A stretch of DNA of 64,000 nucleotides from the NCBI GenBank assembly GCA_048940445.1, contig JBHLON010000003.1:32001-96000 (forward strand), in the 5' to 3' direction. Positions within the stretch are counted from its first letter, which is position 1. Each line of letters begins with the position of its first letter. Below, piece after piece: positions 21,976-39,996 of the stretch. The notes beneath the pieces were generated by a model that was not told the DNA's origin, did not search any database, and was given only the letters and a program-made list of their open reading frames with translations. The position numbers were made by a program, and so were the translations under genes. Source of the stretch: Promethearchaeota archaeon (lineage in GTDB: Archaea > Asgardarchaeota > Lokiarchaeia > Sigyniarchaeales > SOKP01).

Positions 21976-23505
21976 CTATTTTTTAGCTCTTTCCATTGAT
22001 ATTGATTTTTCTAATTCAATTAATTTTTCTATAGACTTCAATGGATAATTACCAGTTAAACATGCCATACATAATTGGTTCTCAGTTTTGTGTAAAGCAT
22101 CTGATAGATCATTTATCGTTTGATACAGTAGTGAATCAGCACCAATCTGTTTTTCAATCTCTTTAACATAGTTTTCTTTATAAAGCATTTGGAACTTACC
22201 TGCTATCAGTTCTTCTTTTGTCGGAAAATCAATTCCCATATAGCATGGACTAATTATTGGAGGACAACTTATACGTAAATGCACTGCTTTAGCATTCCCA
22301 ACATTTTTTAATATAGATACTATTTGTTGTGTAGTGGTACCTCGAACTATTGAATCGTCCAATAAAATTACATCTTTTCCCTCTACTATACTTCTAATTG
22401 GATTTAATTTATCTTTTACAGCAATCTTTCTCTTTTGTTGACCAGGTAAAATAAAAGTTCTATGAATATATCGATTTTTCATCAAACCTTCCACGTAAGG
22501 TAAACCCGATTCTTTTGCATATCCTACTGCAACACTTCTACCAGAATCTGGAACTGGAACGACTATAGCATTTTTTCTAAATTCTGGATCCTTTAAAAGA
22601 GGATCATTTTTAGCTAAGTTTATTCCTAATCTTAATCTTGCTTCAGCTACAGATACTCCATCAATAACTGAATCGGGACGAGCAAAGTATACAAATTCAA
22701 ATTGACAAAGAGCTGTTCTCTCTTTTTTTAGTATTGCTTCTGAATGAATATCTTTTTGATGACTTAAATGAACAATTTCCCCTGGAATAACGTCTCTTAT
22801 AAATTTTCCACCTACAGCATCAATTGCACATGATTCAGATGCCACAAAATATATGTTTCTCTTCTCGGTTTTTAATTCACCTATACATAAAGGTTTAAAC
22901 CCCAAAGGATCGCGCATTGCGTAGATATCACCCTCCGGTGATAAAAGTATCAGAGAATAGGAACCATCAAAAAACCTACTGGCAATCTTCAATATTTCTG
23001 GCCAATCTTCTGTTCCTAAAGCTAATGAAGCTATAAATTGTGCAGCTATTTCAGTATCAGTATTCGTAATGAAAATCCGGCCCATATCTTCCATTCTCTT
23101 TTGAAGATCAGCATAATTTGGGATCGTTCCATTAAATGCCATAGAAAATTCAATTTCATTGTTTTTAAGGTGATACGGCTGCATATATTCGAGAGAGCTA
23201 TACTCTTGAGCTCCTGTCGTGGCGTATCTGGTATGACCTATACCAACATTTCCCCAAAATTTAGATAATATTTTATTGGTTAATACACTTGATACTAACC
23301 CTTTCTTTTTATATGTATATATTTTTCCACCTGTTTTTAAAATAGAAATCCCCGCTGATTCTTGTCCTCTATGTTGCTGCGCAATAAGACCTGTATATAT
23401 CAAATTTGAAACTGAATAGCCAATATCGTTACAAGTGGCCCCAAAAACAGCACAATTTTCCCTAACTTTCTCTCCTAAAGGGGTACAACTATAATTTAGA
23501 GTCAT
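21976..23505 (-). CDS. purF: Amidophosphoribosyltransferase
   Basis: ENCAVFG (propeptide plus catalytic Cys), QHRGQESAGI, GHTRYAT, CQFEFVYFARPDS, DDSIVRGTT, CMACLTG. Confidence 0.97.
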   Translation of the reverse strand: MTLNYSCTPLGEKVRENCAVFGATCNDIGYSVSNLIYTGLIAQQHRGQESAGISILKTGGKIYTYKKKGLVSSVLTNKILSKFWGNVGIGHTRYATTGAQEYSSLEYMQPYHLKNNEIEFSMAFNGTIPNYADLQKRMEDMGRIFITNTDTEIAAQFIASLALGTEDWPEILKIASRFFDGSYSLILLSPEGDIYAMRDPLGFKPLCIGELKTEKRNIYFVASESCAIDAVGGKFIRDVIPGEIVHLSHQKDIHSEAILKKERTALCQFEFVYFARPDSVIDGVSVAEARLRLGINLAKNDPLLKDPEFRKNAIVVPVPDSGRSVAVGYAKESGLPYVEGLMKNRYIHRTFILPGQQKRKIAVKDKLNPIRSIVEGKDVILLDDSIVRGTTTQQIVSILKNVGNAKAVHLRISCPPIISPCYMGIDFPTKEELIAGKFQMLYKENYVKEIEKQIGADSLLYQTINDLSDALHKTENQLCMACLTGNYPLKSIEKLIELEKSISMERAKK

Positions 23506-25956: not shown

Positions 25957-27882
25957 ATGAATAATGTTAATAAGCGATTTGGTATAAAAAAAGTATTTTT
26001 TAACTTAATATATACGGTAACTATAGGAATTATTCTATTTTTTCTGGTAATTTATATCTCATTTCTGCTGTCAAGACTTATACCGGGAGATCCCGTCTTA
26101 GCCTATCTTCCTACGCCATATACACCTTCACAATATGACCAGATGTATCGCCAACTGGGGCTTGATAAACCCCCCTTTCAACAATTCATCCTATATCTTG
26201 GAAGGATGTTTTCTGGCAATTGGGGGATTTCGAACTCAATTAATCATGGGATGCCAGTCACAGAACTATTTGGGCGTTATTGTTTACCAAGAACAATCGA
26301 TCTATTACTCCTACCATTACTTATTGGAATAGTGCTGGGTGCGTTATTTGGAAATCTTTCCATGAAAGTCAAACATAAATGGATAGATAAACTAGTTCAA
26401 ATTCTTACTTTAGTTGGATGCGCATTGCCTTTATTTTTTCTTGGAATGTTATTTCAGTATGTTTTAGGGTATGTATTTCAAATATTTCCAACGATGGGTT
26501 ATAAAACACCTTCATACCCAGATCCTACTTTGATAACAGGCTCCCGAATTATAGATTCATTTCTATCTGGACAATTTTATCTCATCCCTGATTATTTACT
26601 TCACTTTGTTCTGCCATGGTCAGTATTAACAATCGGAATTGGTTCCTTAACCGCATTATTAGTGCGAATATACCTGTTAAATAAAGGTAAAAGACGTTCA
26701 ATAGTGCCAAACTCTTTTAATACAGCAACAAGTTTTGGATTGATTTTTGGATTTATAGTAATAATAGAAACTACATTTGGTTTATATGGAGTGGGCCAAT
26801 TATTTATCCAATCAATTATGAGTGCAGATTATTGGGTGCTTAATTCATTTATATTTTTGATACCTATTACGTTTGTCATTTTACTTGTGTTTTGCAATAT
26901 CCTCTTTATAGTATACGGTTTAATCAAGCGCATTATTATTAAGAAACTTGCCTATAAGCGATCTATAACTAAGAAGTTAAAACATAAAAATGAAATCAAG
27001 TCTGAAAATAATGATCCTCCTGCGATCAGTGGTTCTAATCAATTAGGTGTAAGGCAAGAGAAAGGAATTAAAAAGCAATTCAAAGATTTCTTAAGCTACT
27101 TTAATAAGAAATTATTATCTCCATTAACTATTTTTGGCTCAATAATTCTTTTGTTTTTCATTCTGATTTCAATTTTCCCTCAAATATTAACTCCCTATAC
27201 ATTTGAACAAGCAATTGAGCCTATTCCAGGAGCATGGGGTCCACCCTCACCGCTTCATCCATTTGGTCAAACTAAATTCGGTTGGGATGTTTTAGCAAGG
27301 GTTGTTTATAGTAGTCGAACTGCATTATCAACCATACCTCCCATTATTGGAATTGGGTTGTTAGGAGGATTGATAATTGGCATCCCTATGGCATTATTAA
27401 ATCGCCGATTTAAAATGTCAACTGAGATCTCAATGATAGTAATTTTTTGCGCTCCTATCTATTTTGGTATACTTGTAGTTCTTTCTTCAGTAGCACCAGT
27501 TACACTTGGCAATTCAATGCTTCTTTATGGAATCCTTCTGATTCCATTCTTTACTTTATTGATTGCAAAAACACGAATAAATGGATTTGAAATCATGAAG
27601 AAAGTGATTCCATATATCCCCCTATTCATTGGCTTTATTTTAATAATTGACGCTGGTATTGGATTTTTGGGCTTTTCTGATCCCAGATTTATTTCATTTG
27701 GGAATGAACTCAACGAATCAAGGATGTTTATCTATAATGCTCCTTGGGCTACCATTTGGCCCGGTCTATTCTTATTCTTACTCTCGTTAGGATTCTTTTT
27801 GCTCTATGCTGGTCTACAAAAGAAGCCCAGAGAAAATCCTTTACTATTTGCACCTGTACAAGAACAACCAATAAAAATATAA
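25957..27882 (+). CDS. Fused DppB-DppC peptide/nickel ABC permease
   Basis: N-half DppB (PGDP, GNWGIS, IETTFGLYGVG); C-half DppC (PPSPLHPFGQTKFGWDV, GFLGF, APWATIWPG). Confidence 0.85.
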   Translation: MNNVNKRFGIKKVFFNLIYTVTIGIILFFLVIYISFLLSRLIPGDPVLAYLPTPYTPSQYDQMYRQLGLDKPPFQQFILYLGRMFSGNWGISNSINHGMPVTELFGRYCLPRTIDLLLLPLLIGIVLGALFGNLSMKVKHKWIDKLVQILTLVGCALPLFFLGMLFQYVLGYVFQIFPTMGYKTPSYPDPTLITGSRIIDSFLSGQFYLIPDYLLHFVLPWSVLTIGIGSLTALLVRIYLLNKGKRRSIVPNSFNTATSFGLIFGFIVIIETTFGLYGVGQLFIQSIMSADYWVLNSFIFLIPITFVILLVFCNILFIVYGLIKRIIIKKLAYKRSITKKLKHKNEIKSENNDPPAISGSNQLGVRQEKGIKKQFKDFLSYFNKKLLSPLTIFGSIILLFFILISIFPQILTPYTFEQAIEPIPGAWGPPSPLHPFGQTKFGWDVLARVVYSSRTALSTIPPIIGIGLLGGLIIGIPMALLNRRFKMSTEISMIVIFCAPIYFGILVVLSSVAPVTLGNSMLLYGILLIPFFTLLIAKTRINGFEIMKKVIPYIPLFIGFILIIDAGIGFLGFSDPRFISFGNELNESRMFIYNAPWATIWPGLFLFLLSLGFFLLYAGLQKKPRENPLLFAPVQEQPIKI

Positions 27883-27919
27883 ATCCTATTTTTTATTCTT
27901 TTATTCTCTAATTTAAAAT

Positions 27920-28657
27920 TTAAGCAGACGGTTTTATTTTACGTACTTTAATCGTTTGAAGAATAAGTATTATTGTACCAAAAATTAAAAAGAACAATAA
28001 AAGTAAACCTATAGGGTCCTTTAAAATTTGACTACCTTGAATAAATACAAAAAATAAATAAAAAACAAATCCAAAAATGTATATTATTAAATATAATGAT
28101 ACTCGAGGAATTACTCTGTTCCTAATACGAATATAAAATTTGAAGATCCCATTTTTTATCTCCTCTTTTATATAATATTTTCCTTCCACTTCATCTTTCA
28201 ACAACAATCCCGCATCAATAAGTTTAGTTATCTGATAAGAGACCGTTCCGGATGAAGATATATCCAAAGCTTTCTGAATCTCTCGTATTCCCGCTAATCC
28301 ATGTGTAAATACATACCAATAAATTTGAAGAGTTTTGCCTTCCAATAGCAGTTCTTTAGTAGGTTTATGAGTAATCATCTCAATTTCAGGTTTATCTAAA
28401 AAACTTAGACTAAAGATAATAATACCATATGCGATAAAAGCTGAAATCGAGATAAAAATATAAAGGTCTATCATCAAAATTCCTTGAGAATAGATTATCA
28501 AAAACGTAATTGTCATTATCCCATGAAGAATTATAATATAATGAAAAACTCTTTTAAGATAATAAACTATGAAATTTTTTGAATAAGCTTTTCGAGATTC
28601 AAATCCCCCAGAACTTTTAACTTTTTCATCTTGTTGGTTTGTTTTTTTTATTACCAT
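27920..28657 (-). CDS. Membrane-anchored winged-helix transcription regulator
   Basis: EGKTLQIYWY...GIREIQKALDISSSGTVSYQITKLIDAGLL wHTH flanked by two TM helices on each side. Confidence 0.8.
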   Translation of the reverse strand: MVIKKTNQQDEKVKSSGGFESRKAYSKNFIVYYLKRVFHYIIILHGIMTITFLIIYSQGILMIDLYIFISISAFIAYGIIIFSLSFLDKPEIEMITHKPTKELLLEGKTLQIYWYVFTHGLAGIREIQKALDISSSGTVSYQITKLIDAGLLLKDEVEGKYYIKEEIKNGIFKFYIRIRNRVIPRVSLYLIIYIFGFVFYLFFVFIQGSQILKDPIGLLLLFFLIFGTIILILQTIKVRKIKPSA

Positions 28658-28732
28658 TAAAAATCCTAATCCTCCTTAATATAAGCTATTCTTTTTCAAC
28701 TTTTAAACCTTGCTCAAATCTATTGGATTAAT

Positions 28733-28750
28733 TGTTCAAAAGTTCGAACA
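28733..28750. promoter_or_regulatory. Candidate operator palindrome between the wHTH regulator and dppB
   Basis: TGTTCAAA-AG-TTCGAACA (8-bp arms, one mismatch) in the divergent intergenic region. Confidence 0.45.
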
Positions 28751-28863
28751 CGAAAACCTATTTAAATCTATTAGTGCTTTTTAATTATAGCAAAAATAGT
28801 TCGATATTCAGTTTCCTTTATTAAAATTTACTTAATAGAAAAAATTAAGGATGTTTTTGGACA

Positions 28864-29883
28864 ATGAGTATGATAAAATATATTATTAGAAGATTGCTCG
28901 CAATTATACCAGTACTCTTTGGTGTACTGACATTAACATTTATTTTATCAAGATTTATGCCCGGGGATCCTGTTCTCGCATATTTACCGGAAGGTCATGT
29001 AAATCCTGAACAGTACAGACGGGTGATGCATTTACTAGGATTAGATCAACCCCTCTATATACAATATTTTCGGTATCTTGGTGATTTATTTACGGGGAAT
29101 TGGGGTATTTCTGTCTCGATTGTGCGAGGGATGCCAGTTTGGGATTTAATTATGGTCAGTTTACCTCGAACCGTTGATATTGCTATTTTATCCATTATTA
29201 TAGCTGCGTTTGTGGGTATAAAAACAGGAGTCATTTCTGCAAAACATCGAAATAAAGCAAAGGACACCATCTTCAGAGGCATGTCATTAATTGGGGTCGC
29301 TGTCCCGGTTTTCTTTCTTGGTATGTTATTACAATATATTTTGGGTTACATCTGGCCTATTTTTCCGACAACTGGATTTAAGACATATAGTTATCCTGAT
29401 CCCAACTTTGTCACTGGATTCAGGTGGATCGATGCGTTAATTTCTGGTAAAATTTATATGGTGTCTGACTATTTTTATCATTTGATCTTACCCGTGTTTT
29501 GCTTATCATTCATCTCATTGGCAGGAATCGTAAGACAGACGCGATCCAGCATGTTGGAAGTATTAGAGCAGGATTACGTAAGAACTGCAAGGGCAAAAGG
29601 CTGTAAAGAGAAGGATGTTATCAATACCCATGCTAGAAAAAATGCTATGATCCCTACCACTACTGTGATTGGCTTGAGTTTTGCTGGTCTTTTATCAGGT
29701 GCTGTTCTCACAGAGACAACATTTGGATTAAATGGAATAGGTCAATTGCTTATTCAATCCATTCGTAATTCAGATTATTGGGTGCTCAATGGATTAGTCT
29801 TTTTCTTCTCGATAATATTTGTTATTATCAATTTAATCACAGATTTAATCTATGGGATGCTAGATCCAAGGATTCGATATTAA
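28864..29883 (+). CDS. dppB: Peptide/nickel ABC transporter permease DppB/OppB
   Basis: YIIRRLL, MPGDP, RSSMLEVLEQDYVRTARAKG (EAA loop), LDPRIRY. Confidence 0.93.
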   Translation: MSMIKYIIRRLLAIIPVLFGVLTLTFILSRFMPGDPVLAYLPEGHVNPEQYRRVMHLLGLDQPLYIQYFRYLGDLFTGNWGISVSIVRGMPVWDLIMVSLPRTVDIAILSIIIAAFVGIKTGVISAKHRNKAKDTIFRGMSLIGVAVPVFFLGMLLQYILGYIWPIFPTTGFKTYSYPDPNFVTGFRWIDALISGKIYMVSDYFYHLILPVFCLSFISLAGIVRQTRSSMLEVLEQDYVRTARAKGCKEKDVINTHARKNAMIPTTTVIGLSFAGLLSGAVLTETTFGLNGIGQLLIQSIRNSDYWVLNGLVFFFSIIFVIINLITDLIYGMLDPRIRY

Positions 29884-30995: not shown

Positions 30996-32777
30996 ATGAG
31001 CAACTTAATAATTAAAAATGGATTTGTATATGACCCGCTCAATAAAATCGACGGCGAAAAGAAAGATATCTACATTAAAGATGGACTCATTGCCGAAAAA
31101 GTTAATACCGACGCAAAAGTAATCGATGCTTCTGGAATGGTAGTGATGCCGGGTGGTGTTGATATGCATACCCACATCGCTGGACCCAAAGTCAACATTG
31201 GACGAGCTCTACGACCCGAAGATAAAGTCCCTGAATCAAACCTAAAGAAAACTAAGACTACACGATCTGGAACAGGTTTTAGCGTGCTCAGTACATGGTA
31301 TACCGGTTATAAGTACGCCCAAATGGGCTATACTACAGCTGTTGAACCTGCAATGCCACTTCTCGAAGCTCGACACACCCATGAAGAATTCCTTGAAATT
31401 CCAATCATCGATAAAGCTGCCTTACCCATATACGGAAATAATTGGTTCGTCCTGAAATATATACGCGACAATGATATTGATAAACTCACTGCTTACGTGA
31501 ATTGGATACTCCAAGCAACCAAAGGATATGCCATTAAAATCGTAAATCCCGGAGGGGTAGAAAACTGGGCATGGGGAAATGTGTGGCTTTTTATAGTCTG
31601 CACCCTAGAAAATTGTGAAAGTTTAGATGACCTAGTTTTCCATTGGAGCGTAACGCCTCGAAAGATTATTGAAAGTTTGGCAAAGGTTGCTGAGATTTTG
31701 AAACTGCCACATTCAATCCATGTTCATTGTAATAATTTAGGGCATCCAGGAAACTTCAAGCATTCCCTTGAGACATTTAAAGTTTGCGAGAGCATAAAAG
31801 CTAATAATGGTCGAAAAACAAGTCTTCATGTAACCCATTGTCAATTTAATGCATACGGTGGTACAAATTGGAATGATTTCACCTCTGGAGCCGGTGAGAT
31901 TGCCGAATACGTAAATGCACATAAGCATCTTACCATTGATTGCGGTCAAGTAGTATTTACTAAATATGCAACCACTACGATGACTGGAGACGGACCATGG
32001 GTCACAGATGAGTATCTTGTCTGTGCATGAAAGTTCGCGCTCCATCATTTAGGTGGGTATTCCAGCTGGGGTTCAAAGCCAGGCATTAAGTGGGTCAACG
32101 GGCAAGTAGAGGCAGAGTCAGGTTCGGGTATCGTGCCCTATTTTTTTGATCCTAAAAATAGTGTGAATGCGGTTCAATGGGCGATAGGTCTGGAGTTGAT
32201 GCTTCTGATAAAGGATCCGTTTCAAATTGGCTTTTCCACTGATCATCCAAACGGAGCGCCCTTTACCACTTATCCGATGGCGTTCAAATGGTTGATGGAT
32301 CGAAAAAGTCGAGACGAGATGCTCAAGAATTCGGTCCATAAGAAGGCAAGTACAGCATCGACTTTATCTGATCTTGATAGAGAATTATCGCTCTACGAGC
32401 TTGCAATTGTCACACGAGCCGGTACTTCGAAGATTCTTGGGATGAGGGATCGCGGTCATCTGGGTGTGGGAGCTCTTGGAGACGTTTCGGTATATAAATT
32501 AAACCCAAATAACTATACGGGACATGATATTGAGAAGGCGTTTAGTTCGACAGCATACACAATTAAAGAAGGCACAATCGTGGTAAAGGATGGGGAAATC
32601 ACGGCAGCTCCAATGGGAACTTTACTGCGTGCTGAAGGCACACTAAAGGAGAATCTTATGGAGGAGATGCTTGATGACGTGCGCCATAGCTGGAGAGACC
32701 ATTATAGCATAAACTTCAATAACTATGCGGTTCAGGATGCTTACGCACCAAAAGAGAAAGTATTCAGAGGAAATTAA
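30996..32777 (+). CDS. fwdA: Formylmethanofuran dehydrogenase subunit A, interrupted by two 30-nt BHB introns; join(30996..31578,31609..32001,32032..32777) = 573 aa
   Basis: PGGVDMHTH, GYTTAVEPAMP, IKIVNPGG, HSIHVHCNNLG, HVTHCQF, STDHPNG. Both track ORFs (30996-32030 and 32133-32777) are in the same frame, separated by one TGA inside the second insertion. Confidence 0.93.
31579..31608 (+). other. Candidate mRNA intron 1 (30 nt, relaxed BHB/HBh')
   Basis: GGGG-AA^A-TGTG(T)GGCT-loop-AGTCTGCA-CCCT-AG^A; excision converts WG-NVWLFIVCTLE-NCES to WGKNCES. Confidence 0.8.
32002..32031 (+). other. Candidate mRNA intron 2 (30 nt, canonical BHB, contains in-frame TGA)
   Basis: CGGAC-CATG-GG^T-CACAGATGAG-tat-CTTGTCTGTG-CATG-AA^A-GTTCG; excision gives DGPWEFALHHL. 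Confidence 0.92.
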
Positions 32778-32786
32778 TTTTTTCTT

Positions 32787-34607
32787 TTATTTTTTTCTAT
32801 TTAGGAATTCAACTTTATTATTTGTTTTCCAATATCCATTCGGTGGCATCTTAATATTCCATTCGCTTCTTAATTTGTGAAATGTACTTTTTGATGTAGA
32901 AAAGCGATCAACCAATTCATAATTACGATATTGATATACTAGATCTTGAAGCTCTTGTTTATTGATACCCAAGTTTTTAAGTTTCATCTTTAAGTTTTCA
33001 AATGCTACACGTGATTCCGAAAAATGTTTATCTTTTCTTTCTAATACTTTAATGTTTGATTTTTTACATAGATTTGTCATTTTATTAAAATATTTTGCCC
33101 CAACAAATAAAGAATATTGAGCTTGTTGCAAGTGTATCTTTCCACTTTTATCTTTATAGTATTTTGATTCAATAGTTCTTAAAATTGAATTATCTACATT
33201 CAATGCATGTTTCATTCTAACTAAGAATTGTTTGGAGGTAGAACAGATACGGGTAGTTCCACTAAATCCATCTCCATCATAATAACCTCGGATATAACCC
33301 ATTAATAATTCTTTTTTTGAATTCATATTAACTCCTTTTGGAATATCTTGTTTATAAAATTTTGGTAGTGATTTTCTTTTTGCCTTTGAAGAGCTGAAAC
33401 CTTGTAATTCCAGATCTTTAGCAATTTTATTATTTACAAAATTTAAATAAGCGTAATTATGGGATTTTCCCGTTTTATAATGATTTCTGGTTCTATATCT
33501 GATACGATTTTTATCTATTCCTATGTCTTGACATAATCTTTTTATTAGGACATCATCTTTTTTTGATAATTCTATGAAGATAACTTTCTTAGGAGTTTTT
33601 CTTTTGGTTTTAATTCCATTTTTGTAATAATGTTTCTTAGTCATAACACTTCCATCAGCCATCAAAAATCCGAGCCAATAAGCTTTTTGAAGAGTATTGA
33701 TTTTGTTAAAATAGTTTATTTTCAAGTTGGGTTTATGCAAGTGCCATTGTTGGCAAGACTTATCTTTTAAGTCAGTATGGTGGCTAACATAACTGTTAAT
33801 ATGATTAACAAGGTTTTTAGCTTTCTCATTTGGAAAGTTAGATTGTATATTTTTTATGAATCTATTCAGAATTTCTTTAGAGAATTTATATATTGGATTA
33901 TATAGTTTAGAATTTGGATTAAATCTTGGCATTATAGCTTGTTGGATGTAATCATATCCTTTCTTGCTGTTGATGTCATAAATATATTTGCTTAATTTCC
34001 AGTAAGATAATTCATCACGGTATTTTTCGTTTGGGACGAGTTTTCCGACTTCTTTTCGTAGTTTTTCGACGAGCCATAAGGTTGAGTACTTGGGGAGTAT
34101 ATTTCCTTGTTTATCTTTTATGATATCGTTATTATGTTGTTTTGTAGAGGAGGGTTGTTTTATTTCATTATTTTTGGAGAATTTTTTATAGAGAAGGGCA
34201 TCTTTGGGGTTAATAATTTTATTTTTTGATTTAATATTGTTGGTTAGCTGTGGTGGTTGGATTTTGTTGAAACTTGGATGTTTAAGTTCGGATTTGTTCT
34301 TGGAAGGTTTGTTGGGAGAGATTAAGATTCCTTTGGGTATTTTTAGTTTGGGGATACCTTTTGGATCAAGCCCCCAGCATTTGGGAGGTGGGGATATATC
34401 ATTAATTTTGGGGTTGAGAATATCTTCTGGTGAGACTATTCTTGGATCAAGAATTTTGTTGTACTGAGGCGTGGTATAAGAACCAGATGGGTATTTAGGA
34501 TGAGTTATTTTATTATGGGGGGTGTCTTCCTCCTGGATTTCAGGGTTGTGGAGTTCTTCTTTGATATCTTTTTTCGGGGATTGTGATTTACATTTACATT
34601 TTTCCAT
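32787..34607 (-). CDS. Free-standing two-motif LAGLIDADG homing-endonuclease-family protein
   Basis: AYWLGFLMADGSV and GYIRGYYDGDGF motifs; Pro/Lys/Asn-rich N-terminus; C-terminal HTH-like ...WNIKMPPNGYW. Confidence 0.85.
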   Translation of the reverse strand: MEKCKCKSQSPKKDIKEELHNPEIQEEDTPHNKITHPKYPSGSYTTPQYNKILDPRIVSPEDILNPKINDISPPPKCWGLDPKGIPKLKIPKGILISPNKPSKNKSELKHPSFNKIQPPQLTNNIKSKNKIINPKDALLYKKFSKNNEIKQPSSTKQHNNDIIKDKQGNILPKYSTLWLVEKLRKEVGKLVPNEKYRDELSYWKLSKYIYDINSKKGYDYIQQAIMPRFNPNSKLYNPIYKFSKEILNRFIKNIQSNFPNEKAKNLVNHINSYVSHHTDLKDKSCQQWHLHKPNLKINYFNKINTLQKAYWLGFLMADGSVMTKKHYYKNGIKTKRKTPKKVIFIELSKKDDVLIKRLCQDIGIDKNRIRYRTRNHYKTGKSHNYAYLNFVNNKIAKDLELQGFSSSKAKRKSLPKFYKQDIPKGVNMNSKKELLMGYIRGYYDGDGFSGTTRICSTSKQFLVRMKHALNVDNSILRTIESKYYKDKSGKIHLQQAQYSLFVGAKYFNKMTNLCKKSNIKVLERKDKHFSESRVAFENLKMKLKNLGINKQELQDLVYQYRNYELVDRFSTSKSTFHKLRSEWNIKMPPNGYWKTNNKVEFLNRKK

Positions 34608-35909: not shown

Positions 35910-37184
35910 ATGGTAAGAGAACGTATATTTTGGCAACTTTTTGGTAAACGATTAGTGAGTTATAAAGAACTTGAGAATGGGGAAATAGTAGGTACTGGAT
36001 TTTTAAACCCAATTATAGATAGATTTCGCCTAATAATTATGCTTATTTTTCAGACTAACTATTATAAAAATTATAACTTGGGTCAATGGCGTGGAAAAAG
36101 AGTCGCAAATACATTTTCCCCCCCAATAGGCAGTCGAGCTATGTTCCGAGCTATAAAGAACGTGATTAGAGGAAAAATATTAAGACATGCTCGACCGATT
36201 GCTATGACATTTGCAGTTACGTATAAATGCCAATGCAATTGTGTCCATTGTAGTGCAGGGAAGTTTCAAAAAGTAAACATTCCTGAATTAAGTACAGAGG
36301 AGGCAAAAAGGGTAATTGAAGAAAGCCAAAAGCTTGGAGTATCAATCATAGCTTTTACAGGTGGCGAACCTTTATTACGTAAAGATATTTTTGAGTTGAT
36401 CTCACATGTCAATCAAAAAAAGACAGTTCCGATACTATTTACTAATGGCTTACTTCTTACTCAAGAGAATGTAGATAAATTATCTAAAGCAGGATTATAC
36501 TCCCTCTTTGTAAGCATAGATAGTCCAGTTCCAGATGAACATAATAAATTAAGAGGTATGATTGGTCTTTTTGAAACAGCTATAGAAGGAATTAAACGCG
36601 CGAAAGAGATAGGTATATTTGTTGGATTTTCATCCTATGCTACGCAATCATCTACTAAAGCAGGAAAGTATAAAGAAATTCATGAACTCGCAAAAAAATT
36701 GGGATTACATAATGTGATGTTATTTGATGGTGTTCCAACTGGAAAAATCTTGAAAGATACAAGAGAACTTCTAACAGTGGAGCAACATGAAGAAATTCGT
36801 GAATTTTCATCAAGATTACATAAAAGTAAAATTGTTCCCCCGCTCTCTTCACAATCTTGGCAAAATTCTATTGAATCTTATCTTGCAGGTGTTGGATGTT
36901 TAGCAGCATATATTCAATACTATATCACAGCATATGGGGAGGTAACTCCATGTGACTTTACTCCTTTATCATTTGGTAATATTCGTGATGAACCTTTAAA
37001 GAAAATTTGGATAAAGATGATCCATCATCCCGTTTATAGACATCGAGTAACTGCTTGTAGAATGCAGAATGCAAAATTTCGCTACTTTTATATTGATCCA
37101 ATTCCTGATGAGGTTAAACTTCCATATGATATCAATAAACTTCCAGCGGTAGATTACCGAAAAGAACAAATTCCTAATAATTAA
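35910..37184 (+). CDS. Radical SAM/SPASM-domain protein
   Basis: CQCNCVHC, FTGGEPLLR, GCLAA...GEVTPCDF, C-terminal CRM. Confidence 0.92.
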   Translation: MVRERIFWQLFGKRLVSYKELENGEIVGTGFLNPIIDRFRLIIMLIFQTNYYKNYNLGQWRGKRVANTFSPPIGSRAMFRAIKNVIRGKILRHARPIAMTFAVTYKCQCNCVHCSAGKFQKVNIPELSTEEAKRVIEESQKLGVSIIAFTGGEPLLRKDIFELISHVNQKKTVPILFTNGLLLTQENVDKLSKAGLYSLFVSIDSPVPDEHNKLRGMIGLFETAIEGIKRAKEIGIFVGFSSYATQSSTKAGKYKEIHELAKKLGLHNVMLFDGVPTGKILKDTRELLTVEQHEEIREFSSRLHKSKIVPPLSSQSWQNSIESYLAGVGCLAAYIQYYITAYGEVTPCDFTPLSFGNIRDEPLKKIWIKMIHHPVYRHRVTACRMQNAKFRYFYIDPIPDEVKLPYDINKLPAVDYRKEQIPNN

Positions 37185-37346: not shown

Positions 37347-39821
37347 TTAATCTATTTTTTTCTTTCTATGTCTTACTATTGATAAAACTGCTATACTTAT
37401 CACAGCAGCTACACTAATAATATAAATTAAAATAATCAGTTCGATTGGAACTCCGCTGGTTCCTTGACCATACATGCAATCACCATTATTGCTAAAAGAA
37501 TTTCCTTGGCAAAATTGTTCAACGATACATTCATTATTTCCTATTAACGTATTTCCCGAAATTGTATTATAATTACTGCGATATAAGGATATCCCGAAAT
37601 TATTTTCATTGGCAGTATTACCCTGGATAGTGTTATAATAACTGTAAAATAATTCTATCCCATTAAAAGGGTTATTATTTGCGGTGTTTCCTGAAACTGT
37701 GTTATAATAACTGGAAATTAATTCTATCCCATTAAAAGAGTTATTATTTGCGGTGTTTCCTGAAACTGTGTTATAATAGCTGTAAAATAAGATTATCCCA
37801 CTAAGAAAGTTATTATTTGCGAAGTTTCCTGAAATGTCGGAACTATTACAACCTATTAGACAAATACCATAATCATTGTTATTTGCAATGTTTCCCGAAA
37901 TGGTGTTATGATCACAACGTACTAGGTTTATCCCATAAAGATTATTATCTACAGTGTTTCCCAAGAGGGTATTGTTATAAGAATAGTATAATGAAATTGC
38001 ATTAGTACTATAAGAAATCTCCAAGTCTCTTATTAATGAATCATTGCAATTGACCAGTATAACTTGTCCAGCATCAAAAAAATCGTCTGATCTTAAATTT
38101 TTTTCATTAACATAATAATATAATGGTTTTCCATTCACTAGATTTGTAGTGCTAATATCTTGGGAACTCAAAAGTTCAACTGAACCCTCAATAATTAATC
38201 CACATTTATTCATAATATTTCCTGAAACTGTGGTATGATTATTTGAGTATAAGACTATTCCATATGAGCTATCATCTATGATGTTTCCCGAAATGGCGGT
38301 ATGATCACATTTTTCCATTCGTATCCCATATTGATTGTTATTTGCGTTGTTTCCTGAAACTGTGATATGATTATTTGAGAATAAGTCTATTCCATCTGTG
38401 TTATCATCTATGATGTTTCCCGAAATGATGGTATGATTACAGCCTTCCAGTTGTATCCCATCGTTATTATCATTTACAGTGTTTCCCGAAATAGCGGAAT
38501 TATTACTACTCAATAGATAAATACCAAAAAAGGCATTATCATTTGCGTTGTTTCCCGAAATAATGGAATTATTACTATTTAATAGAAAAATACCAAGGGT
38601 ATTGTTATTTACGATGTTTCCTAAAACAGTGATATTAACGCTATTTATTAAAGAGACACCGTAATAATTGCAACTTGCGTTGTTTCCCGAAATGGTGGTA
38701 TAATTACTCTCAGATAAAGGTATCCCAAATAGATTATTATTTGCGATATTTCCCGAAATAGTGGAATTGTTACTATCTAATAGATAAATACCATTAGTAT
38801 TGTTATTTACGATGTTTCCGAAAACAGTGATATTAACGCTATTTATTAAAGAGATACCATAATAATTGTTATTTGCAGTATTACTCAAAATGTTAATATC
38901 ATTACATGACCTTATGTCGAATCCATTATTATTACTATTTGCTATATTTCCTGAAATTGTAATGTTAGTACAATAAGAGACTGAAAATCCTATAGCAATA
39001 TGAGAAACACTCAAGTTTGATACCAATGAATTATGACAATTGATCAGTATCACTTGCCCTCCATTTATAAAATCGTTCAATCCCAAATTAATTTCATTAA
39101 TGTAATAATATATTGGTTTATCATTCACTAAATTTGTGGTGTCTATTCTATTTGGTAATATTCCCTCCCACAACCTAATTCCACAATTAATCATTTTATT
39201 ACCTGAAATCGTGTTATTAATACTATAGTATAAATTTATCCCCATATAGTTGTTATTTAAAGCGTTTTCTGAAATTATATTATTGTTACTATTGAATAAA
39301 TTTATCCCATCATTATTATCATTTACACTGTTTCCAGAGATCGTATTATTAATACTAAAGATTAAAGTTATTGCTGTATCAAAATTATTACTCACGTTAT
39401 TGTTCATTATTAGTCCATTCGTAACGTTACTTAAATAAATACCTGAACCAACAGCATAATTTCCTGAATTATGTAATGTACAATTTTTAATTATAAAAGA
39501 TACATTAGAGTTTTGAATCAAGATACAATTTCCTAGACCACCTCCATCTATCTCCACATCTTCTATAACAAAGGGCTCTGAGTAAGTGCCATTCCCAGTA
39601 CATATTCCAGTATTTTTAGCCACAAACCAATTAGAACTTGGATCATTATCATCAATATAAATTGGGGGGGATAAAGCTGAAATTTTAAAATTTTCATGAT
39701 CTGAATTAATATATTCTCTAAAATCTGAAATTTCATAATTAAAACTAAAGGAAATCATTGGTGAAAAAAGGAAAAGGATACCTAAAATAATTAAGACTAT
39801 TTCATCGTGATTTGATTTCAT
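37347..39821 (-). CDS. NosD-type right-handed beta-helix surface protein with C-terminal TM anchor
   Basis: Many 22-aa ISGNxxNNNxxGIxL repeats, CTGNGTYSEP; start MKSNH at 39821 parallels the paralog's MKSNT. Confidence 0.88.
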   Translation of the reverse strand: MKSNHDEIVLIILGILFLFSPMISFSFNYEISDFREYINSDHENFKISALSPPIYIDDNDPSSNWFVAKNTGICTGNGTYSEPFVIEDVEIDGGGLGNCILIQNSNVSFIIKNCTLHNSGNYAVGSGIYLSNVTNGLIMNNNVSNNFDTAITLIFSINNTISGNSVNDNNDGINLFNSNNNIISENALNNNYMGINLYYSINNTISGNKMINCGIRLWEGILPNRIDTTNLVNDKPIYYYINEINLGLNDFINGGQVILINCHNSLVSNLSVSHIAIGFSVSYCTNITISGNIANSNNNGFDIRSCNDINILSNTANNNYYGISLINSVNITVFGNIVNNNTNGIYLLDSNNSTISGNIANNNLFGIPLSESNYTTISGNNASCNYYGVSLINSVNITVLGNIVNNNTLGIFLLNSNNSIISGNNANDNAFFGIYLLSSNNSAISGNTVNDNNDGIQLEGCNHTIISGNIIDDNTDGIDLFSNNHITVSGNNANNNQYGIRMEKCDHTAISGNIIDDSSYGIVLYSNNHTTVSGNIMNKCGLIIEGSVELLSSQDISTTNLVNGKPLYYYVNEKNLRSDDFFDAGQVILVNCNDSLIRDLEISYSTNAISLYYSYNNTLLGNTVDNNLYGINLVRCDHNTISGNIANNNDYGICLIGCNSSDISGNFANNNFLSGIILFYSYYNTVSGNTANNNSFNGIELISSYYNTVSGNTANNNPFNGIELFYSYYNTIQGNTANENNFGISLYRSNYNTISGNTLIGNNECIVEQFCQGNSFSNNGDCMYGQGTSGVPIELIILIYIISVAAVISIAVLSIVRHRKKKID

Positions 39822-39996
39822 ATCAGTTTCGCTAATATAATTTTTTTTAGAACTAAAATATATTTTAAAGCTTTCCTTTATAAAGCTTTGTTTCAATTAT
39901 AGGGGTAAATTTTTATTCAGGTAAGCTAAAAATTGTTTGAAAGCTCTATTAATTCAAAAGCCATTATTGAAGCTAATTCCTAATGGTGTTATATTT

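Follow-up and report, generated by a model that had tools for sequence, protein, structure and literature searches.

The fwdA gene of an Asgard archaeon, encoding formylmethanofuran dehydrogenase subunit A, was confirmed to contain an insert of exactly 30 nt without a stop codon at positions 31579-31608, which is very probably an mRNA intron of the tRNA type, with a relaxed bulge-helix-bulge (BHB) motif, that is spliced out of the transcript; at the DNA level it is probably tied, by homing, to a neighboring nuclease gene. Positions refer to the window, i.e., the whole 64,000-nt stretch of DNA analyzed here, which corresponds to contig C47 of a host genome (G000) of 3.64 Mb with 30% GC and 93% completeness; features lie on the plus strand unless indicated. 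Asgard archaea are close prokaryotic relatives of eukaryotes, and the host is probably of the Lokiarchaeia type, since neighboring proteins have close relatives labelled Promethearchaeia. The fwdA gene (30996-32777), detected as a single copy in the genome, is predicted to comprise three exons (30996-31578, 31609-32001, and 32032-32777), separated by the above insert (site 1) and by a second intron of 30 nt (site 2, 32002-32031) with an in-frame UGA and a canonical BHB. As the site-1 insert is in frame and stop-free, translation does not demand its removal; evidence for an intron comes from the exact boundaries, from the layout common to frame-breaking inserts of the same genome, from a frame-breaking insert at the same junction in another genome (G217), and from the EndA type. 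The flanks of the locus hold two ABC-type peptide permease genes, a radical-SAM-like gene, and a long gene of parallel beta-helix repeats (25957-29883, 35910-37184, and 37347-39896; assigned by eye from the translations), and a promoter and terminator scan gave no signal above chance level.

The coordinates, helix, and bulges of the original prediction were all correct. The central helix of 4 bp pairs the exon strand GGGG (31573-31576, from the Trp-Gly codons) with the intron strand CCCU (31603-31606), forming three G-C pairs and one G.U. The 5' bulge AAA (31577-31579), with the predicted cut between 31578 and 31579, is followed by four contiguous intron-intron pairs, which belong to an intron-internal hairpin (31580-31602) of 4 bp, a bulged U, another 4 bp, and a 6-nt loop. 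The 3' bulge or loop AGA (31607-31609), with the predicted cut between 31608 and 31609, is closed by a single exon-exon pair, U31572-A31610, so the outer helix is as weak as had been predicted (about 1 bp). A strict BHB motif has at least two pairs closing the second bulge; with an outer helix too short for the strict motif, the site-1 insert is by sequence criteria a relaxed BHB mRNA intron. The cutting rule of EndA, which cleaves each 3-nt bulge behind its second base, takes out exactly the insert that homology defines. With 31579-31608 removed, the product reads W-A-W-G-K-N-C-E-S-L-D-D and is identical to that of three related genomes (G029, G021, and G012), in agreement with the prediction that the cut restores the expected Lys; among the 30-nt registers tried, G-K-N resulted only from starts at 31579 and 31580, which give the same product. 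The probability of the site-1 helix was 0.80-0.85 in contexts of 140-220 nt and 0.01 in one 81-nt window, and the lowest-energy fold adds U31572-A31607 to the helix (probability 0.29), a competing 5-bp alternative. The evidence for the motif is geometric, not energetic.

Comparison with orthologues bore out the predicted 10-aa insertion. A clean gap of exactly 10 residues was found against the solved methanogen FwdA structures (5T5I and 9SW6), and the insert is missing from 28 loci of the genus and class and from 34 metagenome loci, all of which read W-x-W-G-K/R bar one recoded allele. Retention of the insertion in related FwdA proteins, named beforehand as evidence against splicing, was looked for, and the orthologues proved to be without it. 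The site-1 insert is known from one assembly, and its own pairs are accordingly not open to covariation. A pattern search of 135 family genomes for inserts at the site-1 junction matched only the host genome and G217, a member of another genus. The G217 insert is 31 nt long, has a stop and a frameshift, and is unrelated in sequence; it folds as a BHB in the same register with a weaker helix (two G.U), and its removal gives W-G-E-N, not W-G-K-N. The fwdA genes of the two genomes do not form a clade (p-AU 2.6 × 10−7), which makes two separate gains the simplest reading. Around the G217 insert, 32 of 90 bases differ from a 93% identical relative and few differences are seen downstream, a divergent patch as expected if the insert had arrived by recombination.

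Site 1 belongs to a class of inserts in the host genome. When relatives were compared without regard to motif, over 728 kb at the protein level and over 843 kb of DNA in the case of the related genome G017, and targeted checks were added, homology confirmed nine inserts of 21-31 nt that break the frame and share the BHB layout; they lie in fwdA (site 2) and in the genes for mevalonate kinase (mvk), a GH38 glycosidase, purA, uvrA, an Sm protein, an RHH regulator (one mismatch in the central helix), an LMW phosphatase, and one unnamed product on contig C61. Inserts of this class are most often 30 nt long and most often have AAA as the first bulge, and A is the opening base of the second bulge in 10 of 10 cases; site 1 fits all three features. 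Its weak outer helix is no oddity, because the inserts of purA (no exon-exon pair), mvk (one), and GH38 (one) are equally weak and yet must be removed to make protein. In each of the 16 family genomes that carry it, the GH38 intron retains a stop, a paired central helix, and a single exon-exon pair. The site-2 position is also occupied in G017, G029, G237, G350, and one metagenome contig, with diverged interiors. Around site 2, the divergence between G029, which has the intron (L003), and G021, which has none (L004), is twice that elsewhere (0.16 versus 0.07-0.09), a possible conversion tract.

Two further inserts of this kind were seen in G017: 33-nt, stop-containing BHB inserts near 167313 of its contig C11 and near 23476 of its contig C17, both missing from the host genome, one in the P-loop region of a translation GTPase and one in a glycine-rich motif. 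The Sm/Lsm gene of the host (C26:3313-3343, minus strand; L146) is interrupted by a BHB insert of 31 nt that shifts the frame, is missing from five relatives, and has ends resembling those of the site-1 insert. A joint pattern matches just these two sites; most of the shared letters are forced by pairing or by the class consensus, and a common origin of the two introns is not claimed.

The splicing machinery encoded by the genome was analyzed as the original prediction had proposed. There are two EndA paralogues, encoded on contigs C3 and C62: the alpha subunit, whose best match is the catalytic subunit of A. pernix, aligns without gaps over the loop with K44/R46 and has the catalytic His, and the second paralogue lacks this His. 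An RtcB gene is also present. The loop holding K44/R46 confers cleavage of relaxed motifs (PMC3241643). From this composition we infer a two-subunit, broad-specificity enzyme, and cleavage and ligation by EndA and RtcB at site 1 are highly probable. The fwdA transcript would fold with exon GGGG paired to intron CCCU, the two-subunit EndA would cleave both bulges according to the above cutting rule, and RtcB would join the exons and restore Gly-Lys-Asn. Once site 2 had been spliced as well, the mRNA would encode full-length FwdA.

The alternative that survives best, although unlikely, is that the insert is of BHB origin and is now spliced poorly or not at all, persisting by virtue of an unbroken frame and of the protection it gives the DNA against the adjacent nuclease, so that FwdA is partly or wholly made with ten extra residues. 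Such a state would suit an insert that is in frame and stop-free, as DNA protection needs no splicing, and it would agree with two G.U among the first four stem pairs and with the context-dependent folding described above. However, the insert shows no decay relative to obligate introns (constrained fold of -8.7 kcal/mol, against a range of -1.9 to -12.1), and the orthologues read at site 1 differ in length by no more than one residue. The lysine that aligns with Lys178 of 5T5I, a metal ligand, is found 15 residues before the site.

Far less probable is an ordinary in-frame protein insertion that resembles a BHB by chance. Relaxed motifs of a looser definition are common (about 1,500 in the open frames of the genome), and the site-1 hairpin is not unusually stable (z = -0.19), but the motif coincides with boundaries that are fixed independently by homology. 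An equally good motif in any of three registers was obtained in 272 of 400,000 shuffled inserts (6.8 × 10−4), and at a 30-nt length in 18 of 2.74 million random coding positions (6.6 × 10−6). Among 56 clean indels counted against G017, the top three BHB scores belong to the three intragenic ones of 30-33 nt; moreover, other lineages have frame-breaking inserts at the same junction and 16 nt away. Just as improbable is that the insert reflects misassembly or damage to a defunct gene, for although it comes from one assembly and an exact-protein look-up of the fwdA product gave no second record, the insert copies nothing else in the genome, exact BHB geometry is not expected from an error, fwdA has a dN/dS of 0.04 against its nearest relative and similar numbers of amino-acid changes on the host and G017 branches (15 versus 11-13), and an intact fwdB is present elsewhere in the genome.

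It had also been suggested that more such introns may hide genome-wide, and this part was not supported. Stop-free introns are to be expected, as 33% to 65% of shuffled 30-mers are stop-free; one of the seven known inserts of a length divisible by three is stop-free in this genome, in a set biased towards broken genes. The lack of a stop codon in the site-1 insert is most simply explained by chance. When the genome was scanned by motif and frame rescue, whether or not a coding model was applied, matches with 3-nt bulges were no commoner than controls with bulges of 1, 2, 4, or 5 nt, indicating that the motif alone cannot find these introns. An in-frame scan with the class consensus gave 23 matches versus 31 and 12 in controls; five of these matches were covered by relatives, and only site 1 was an insertion. 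No second stop-free in-frame case was present in about 1.1 Mb compared with relatives, a comparison that introns common to all compared genomes would escape. Hidden in-frame introns in this genome likely number a handful at most. Where an insert has neither a stop nor a frameshift, as at site 1, gene callers turn the intron into protein.

What is new, and was not part of the original prediction, is a free-standing LAGLIDADG gene beside the intron-bearing fwdA. The ORF at 32787-34607 (minus strand), convergent with fwdA, encodes a 606-aa double-motif homing endonuclease: it has two LAGLIDADG-type motifs with acidic residues, a weak match to PF14528 (21.6 bits; cut-off 22.5), and a 66% identical orthologue named LAGLIDADG family homing endonuclease by NCBI. 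A close orthologue was found in 2 of the 135 family genomes, the host and G018, adjoining fwdA in both. G018 has no site-1 intron and is the sole genome of the 135 with a non-Gly codon after W-x-W, reading W-S-R-N. When G018 is compared with close relatives, the number of differences per 60 bases rises abruptly from 2 to 18 at codon +11 (p ≤ 0.001), four codons from site 1 (+15), and then decays towards the nuclease gene; the divergence step of the host genome itself maps loosely, at codon -22. The next nuclease homologues, chosen by protein similarity alone, all adjoin fwdA. In one cluster of these, fwdA has a 29-nt BHB intron with a stop and a frameshift, 16 nt upstream of site 1, and one contig ends before site 1. 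The four nucleases form one moderately supported clade (90/89), and the stretch is altered in all three lineages of the clade in which the site is visible, in two of them by different introns and in the third by W-S-R recoding accompanied by a conversion step. No nuclease match was seen in flanks of about 0.75-1.5 kb at some 60 fwdA loci at which the stretch is intact.

Since the carriers of this clade with a visible site are altered and the loci without a nuclease match are intact, the pattern points to collaborative homing. We infer that the nuclease targets the intron-free site-1 stretch, a claim based on three independent lineages; its putative target region (31558-31616, codons V-E-N-W-A-W-G-K-N) is split here by the site-1 intron. 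At the DNA level, it is likely that the intron interrupts the recognition site, protecting the allele that bears it, and spreads together with the nuclease gene by gene conversion. If so, this would explain both how the site-1 intron arrived and why it is kept, and it bears on the open question of how short ORF-less archaeal introns arrive. A broader proposal, towards which the balance tips slightly, is that nuclease carriers escaped self-cleavage of this fwdA stretch in three ways, i.e., a stop-free BHB intron, a frameshifting BHB intron 16 nt away, and codon recoding; tiny mRNA introns spliced by EndA would then owe their origin or spread to the immunity they confer, and a stop-free intron could give rise to both a spliced and a retained form of the protein.

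Nuclease genes of other lineages were also found beside fwdA. G217 has a LAGLIDADG-like gene just upstream of fwdA that is 31% identical. Downstream of fwdA, G350 has a long LAGLIDADG-like ORF (L312) and G017 a LAGLIDADG remnant (L102:15409-15687); in both genomes, which are exceptions to the above pattern, site 1 is intact and the site-2 intron is present, and a separate nuclease may target site 2. A second LAGLIDADG gene of the host genome (C78:66101-67123; L143 and L333) lies 278 nt from the GH38 intron (67401). All six nuclease carriers seen at GH38 have the intron and three intron-free alleles are without the nuclease, as are 9 of the 15 intron alleles whose flanks were long enough. The other three LAGLIDADG-like genes of the genome have no convincing intron-bearing neighbor, and seven of the nine intron genes have no LAGLIDADG-like gene within 3 kb. 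Pairing of nuclease and intron as a general rule was thus rejected, since most intron genes are without such a neighbor and the pairing is not obligatory.

Archaeal mRNA splicing by the tRNA splicing endonuclease has been reported for cbf5 and HVO_1309 (PMC10485636). The cbf5 pre-mRNA introns of Crenarchaeota are BHB introns of 16-44 nt, often relaxed and linked to a hetero-oligomeric EndA (Yokobori 2009, PMC2738675), and some of them, with lengths of 33, 36, and 39 nt, keep the frame (PMC2738675). A frame-keeping BHB mRNA intron is therefore not new in kind. Site 1 resembles the cbf5 case as a short BHB intron in coding sequence with a relaxed motif and a frame-keeping length; splicing has been demonstrated for cbf5, whereas the fwdA intron is a prediction. 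The fwdA case further differs in its Asgard host, in the metabolic gene affected, and in having two introns in one gene, and the genome differs in having at least 10 inserts in nine genes, patchy gain, and an adjacent free-standing nuclease, whereas two genes have been reported for archaeal mRNA. The HVO_1309 mRNA of Haloferax volcanii is likewise reported to be spliced by the tRNA splicing endonuclease (PMC10485636), there a homodimeric enzyme in a different phylum and gene. A literature search, with most subscription journals outside its reach, found no report of Asgard mRNA introns.

Non-canonical tRNA introns of Asgard archaea have the same motif and enzyme type as site 1, and the preprint describing them reports repeated independent gains and leaves the route of arrival open (bioRxiv 10.64898/2026.10.13.758758). 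That census concerns tRNA genes, and no mention of mRNA or cbf5 was found there. ARAGORN gave just 21 tRNA genes in the 93% complete host genome, many with introns, and multi-intron tRNA genes were probably missed by the program. Collaborative homing, by F-CphI and the psbA group I intron of cyanophage S-PM2, and intronless homing are known from phages (PMC6083498, PMC10448857), where a free-standing nuclease lies by a conserved gene and the carrier is taken to be protected by an intron lacking an ORF or by a changed sequence at the target, as proposed here. The fwdA case differs in its cellular archaeal host, its LAGLIDADG nuclease, and a protein-spliced 30-nt BHB intron in place of a ribozyme, and cleavage is here a prediction.

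Four natural fwdA alleles are available: the intact one (as in G017 and G021), that with the site-1 intron, that with the upstream intron (L298), and W-S-R (G018). Aberrant copies of the gene were also encountered. A copy in G225 (contig C164; L283) has two in-frame stops and zero net insertion over the stretch searched. G217 has, on contig C54 (L282, L307:2270-2866), a second fwdA 5' half whose 3' half was not found nearby; this 5' half stops right after V-E-N, inside the putative nuclease target.
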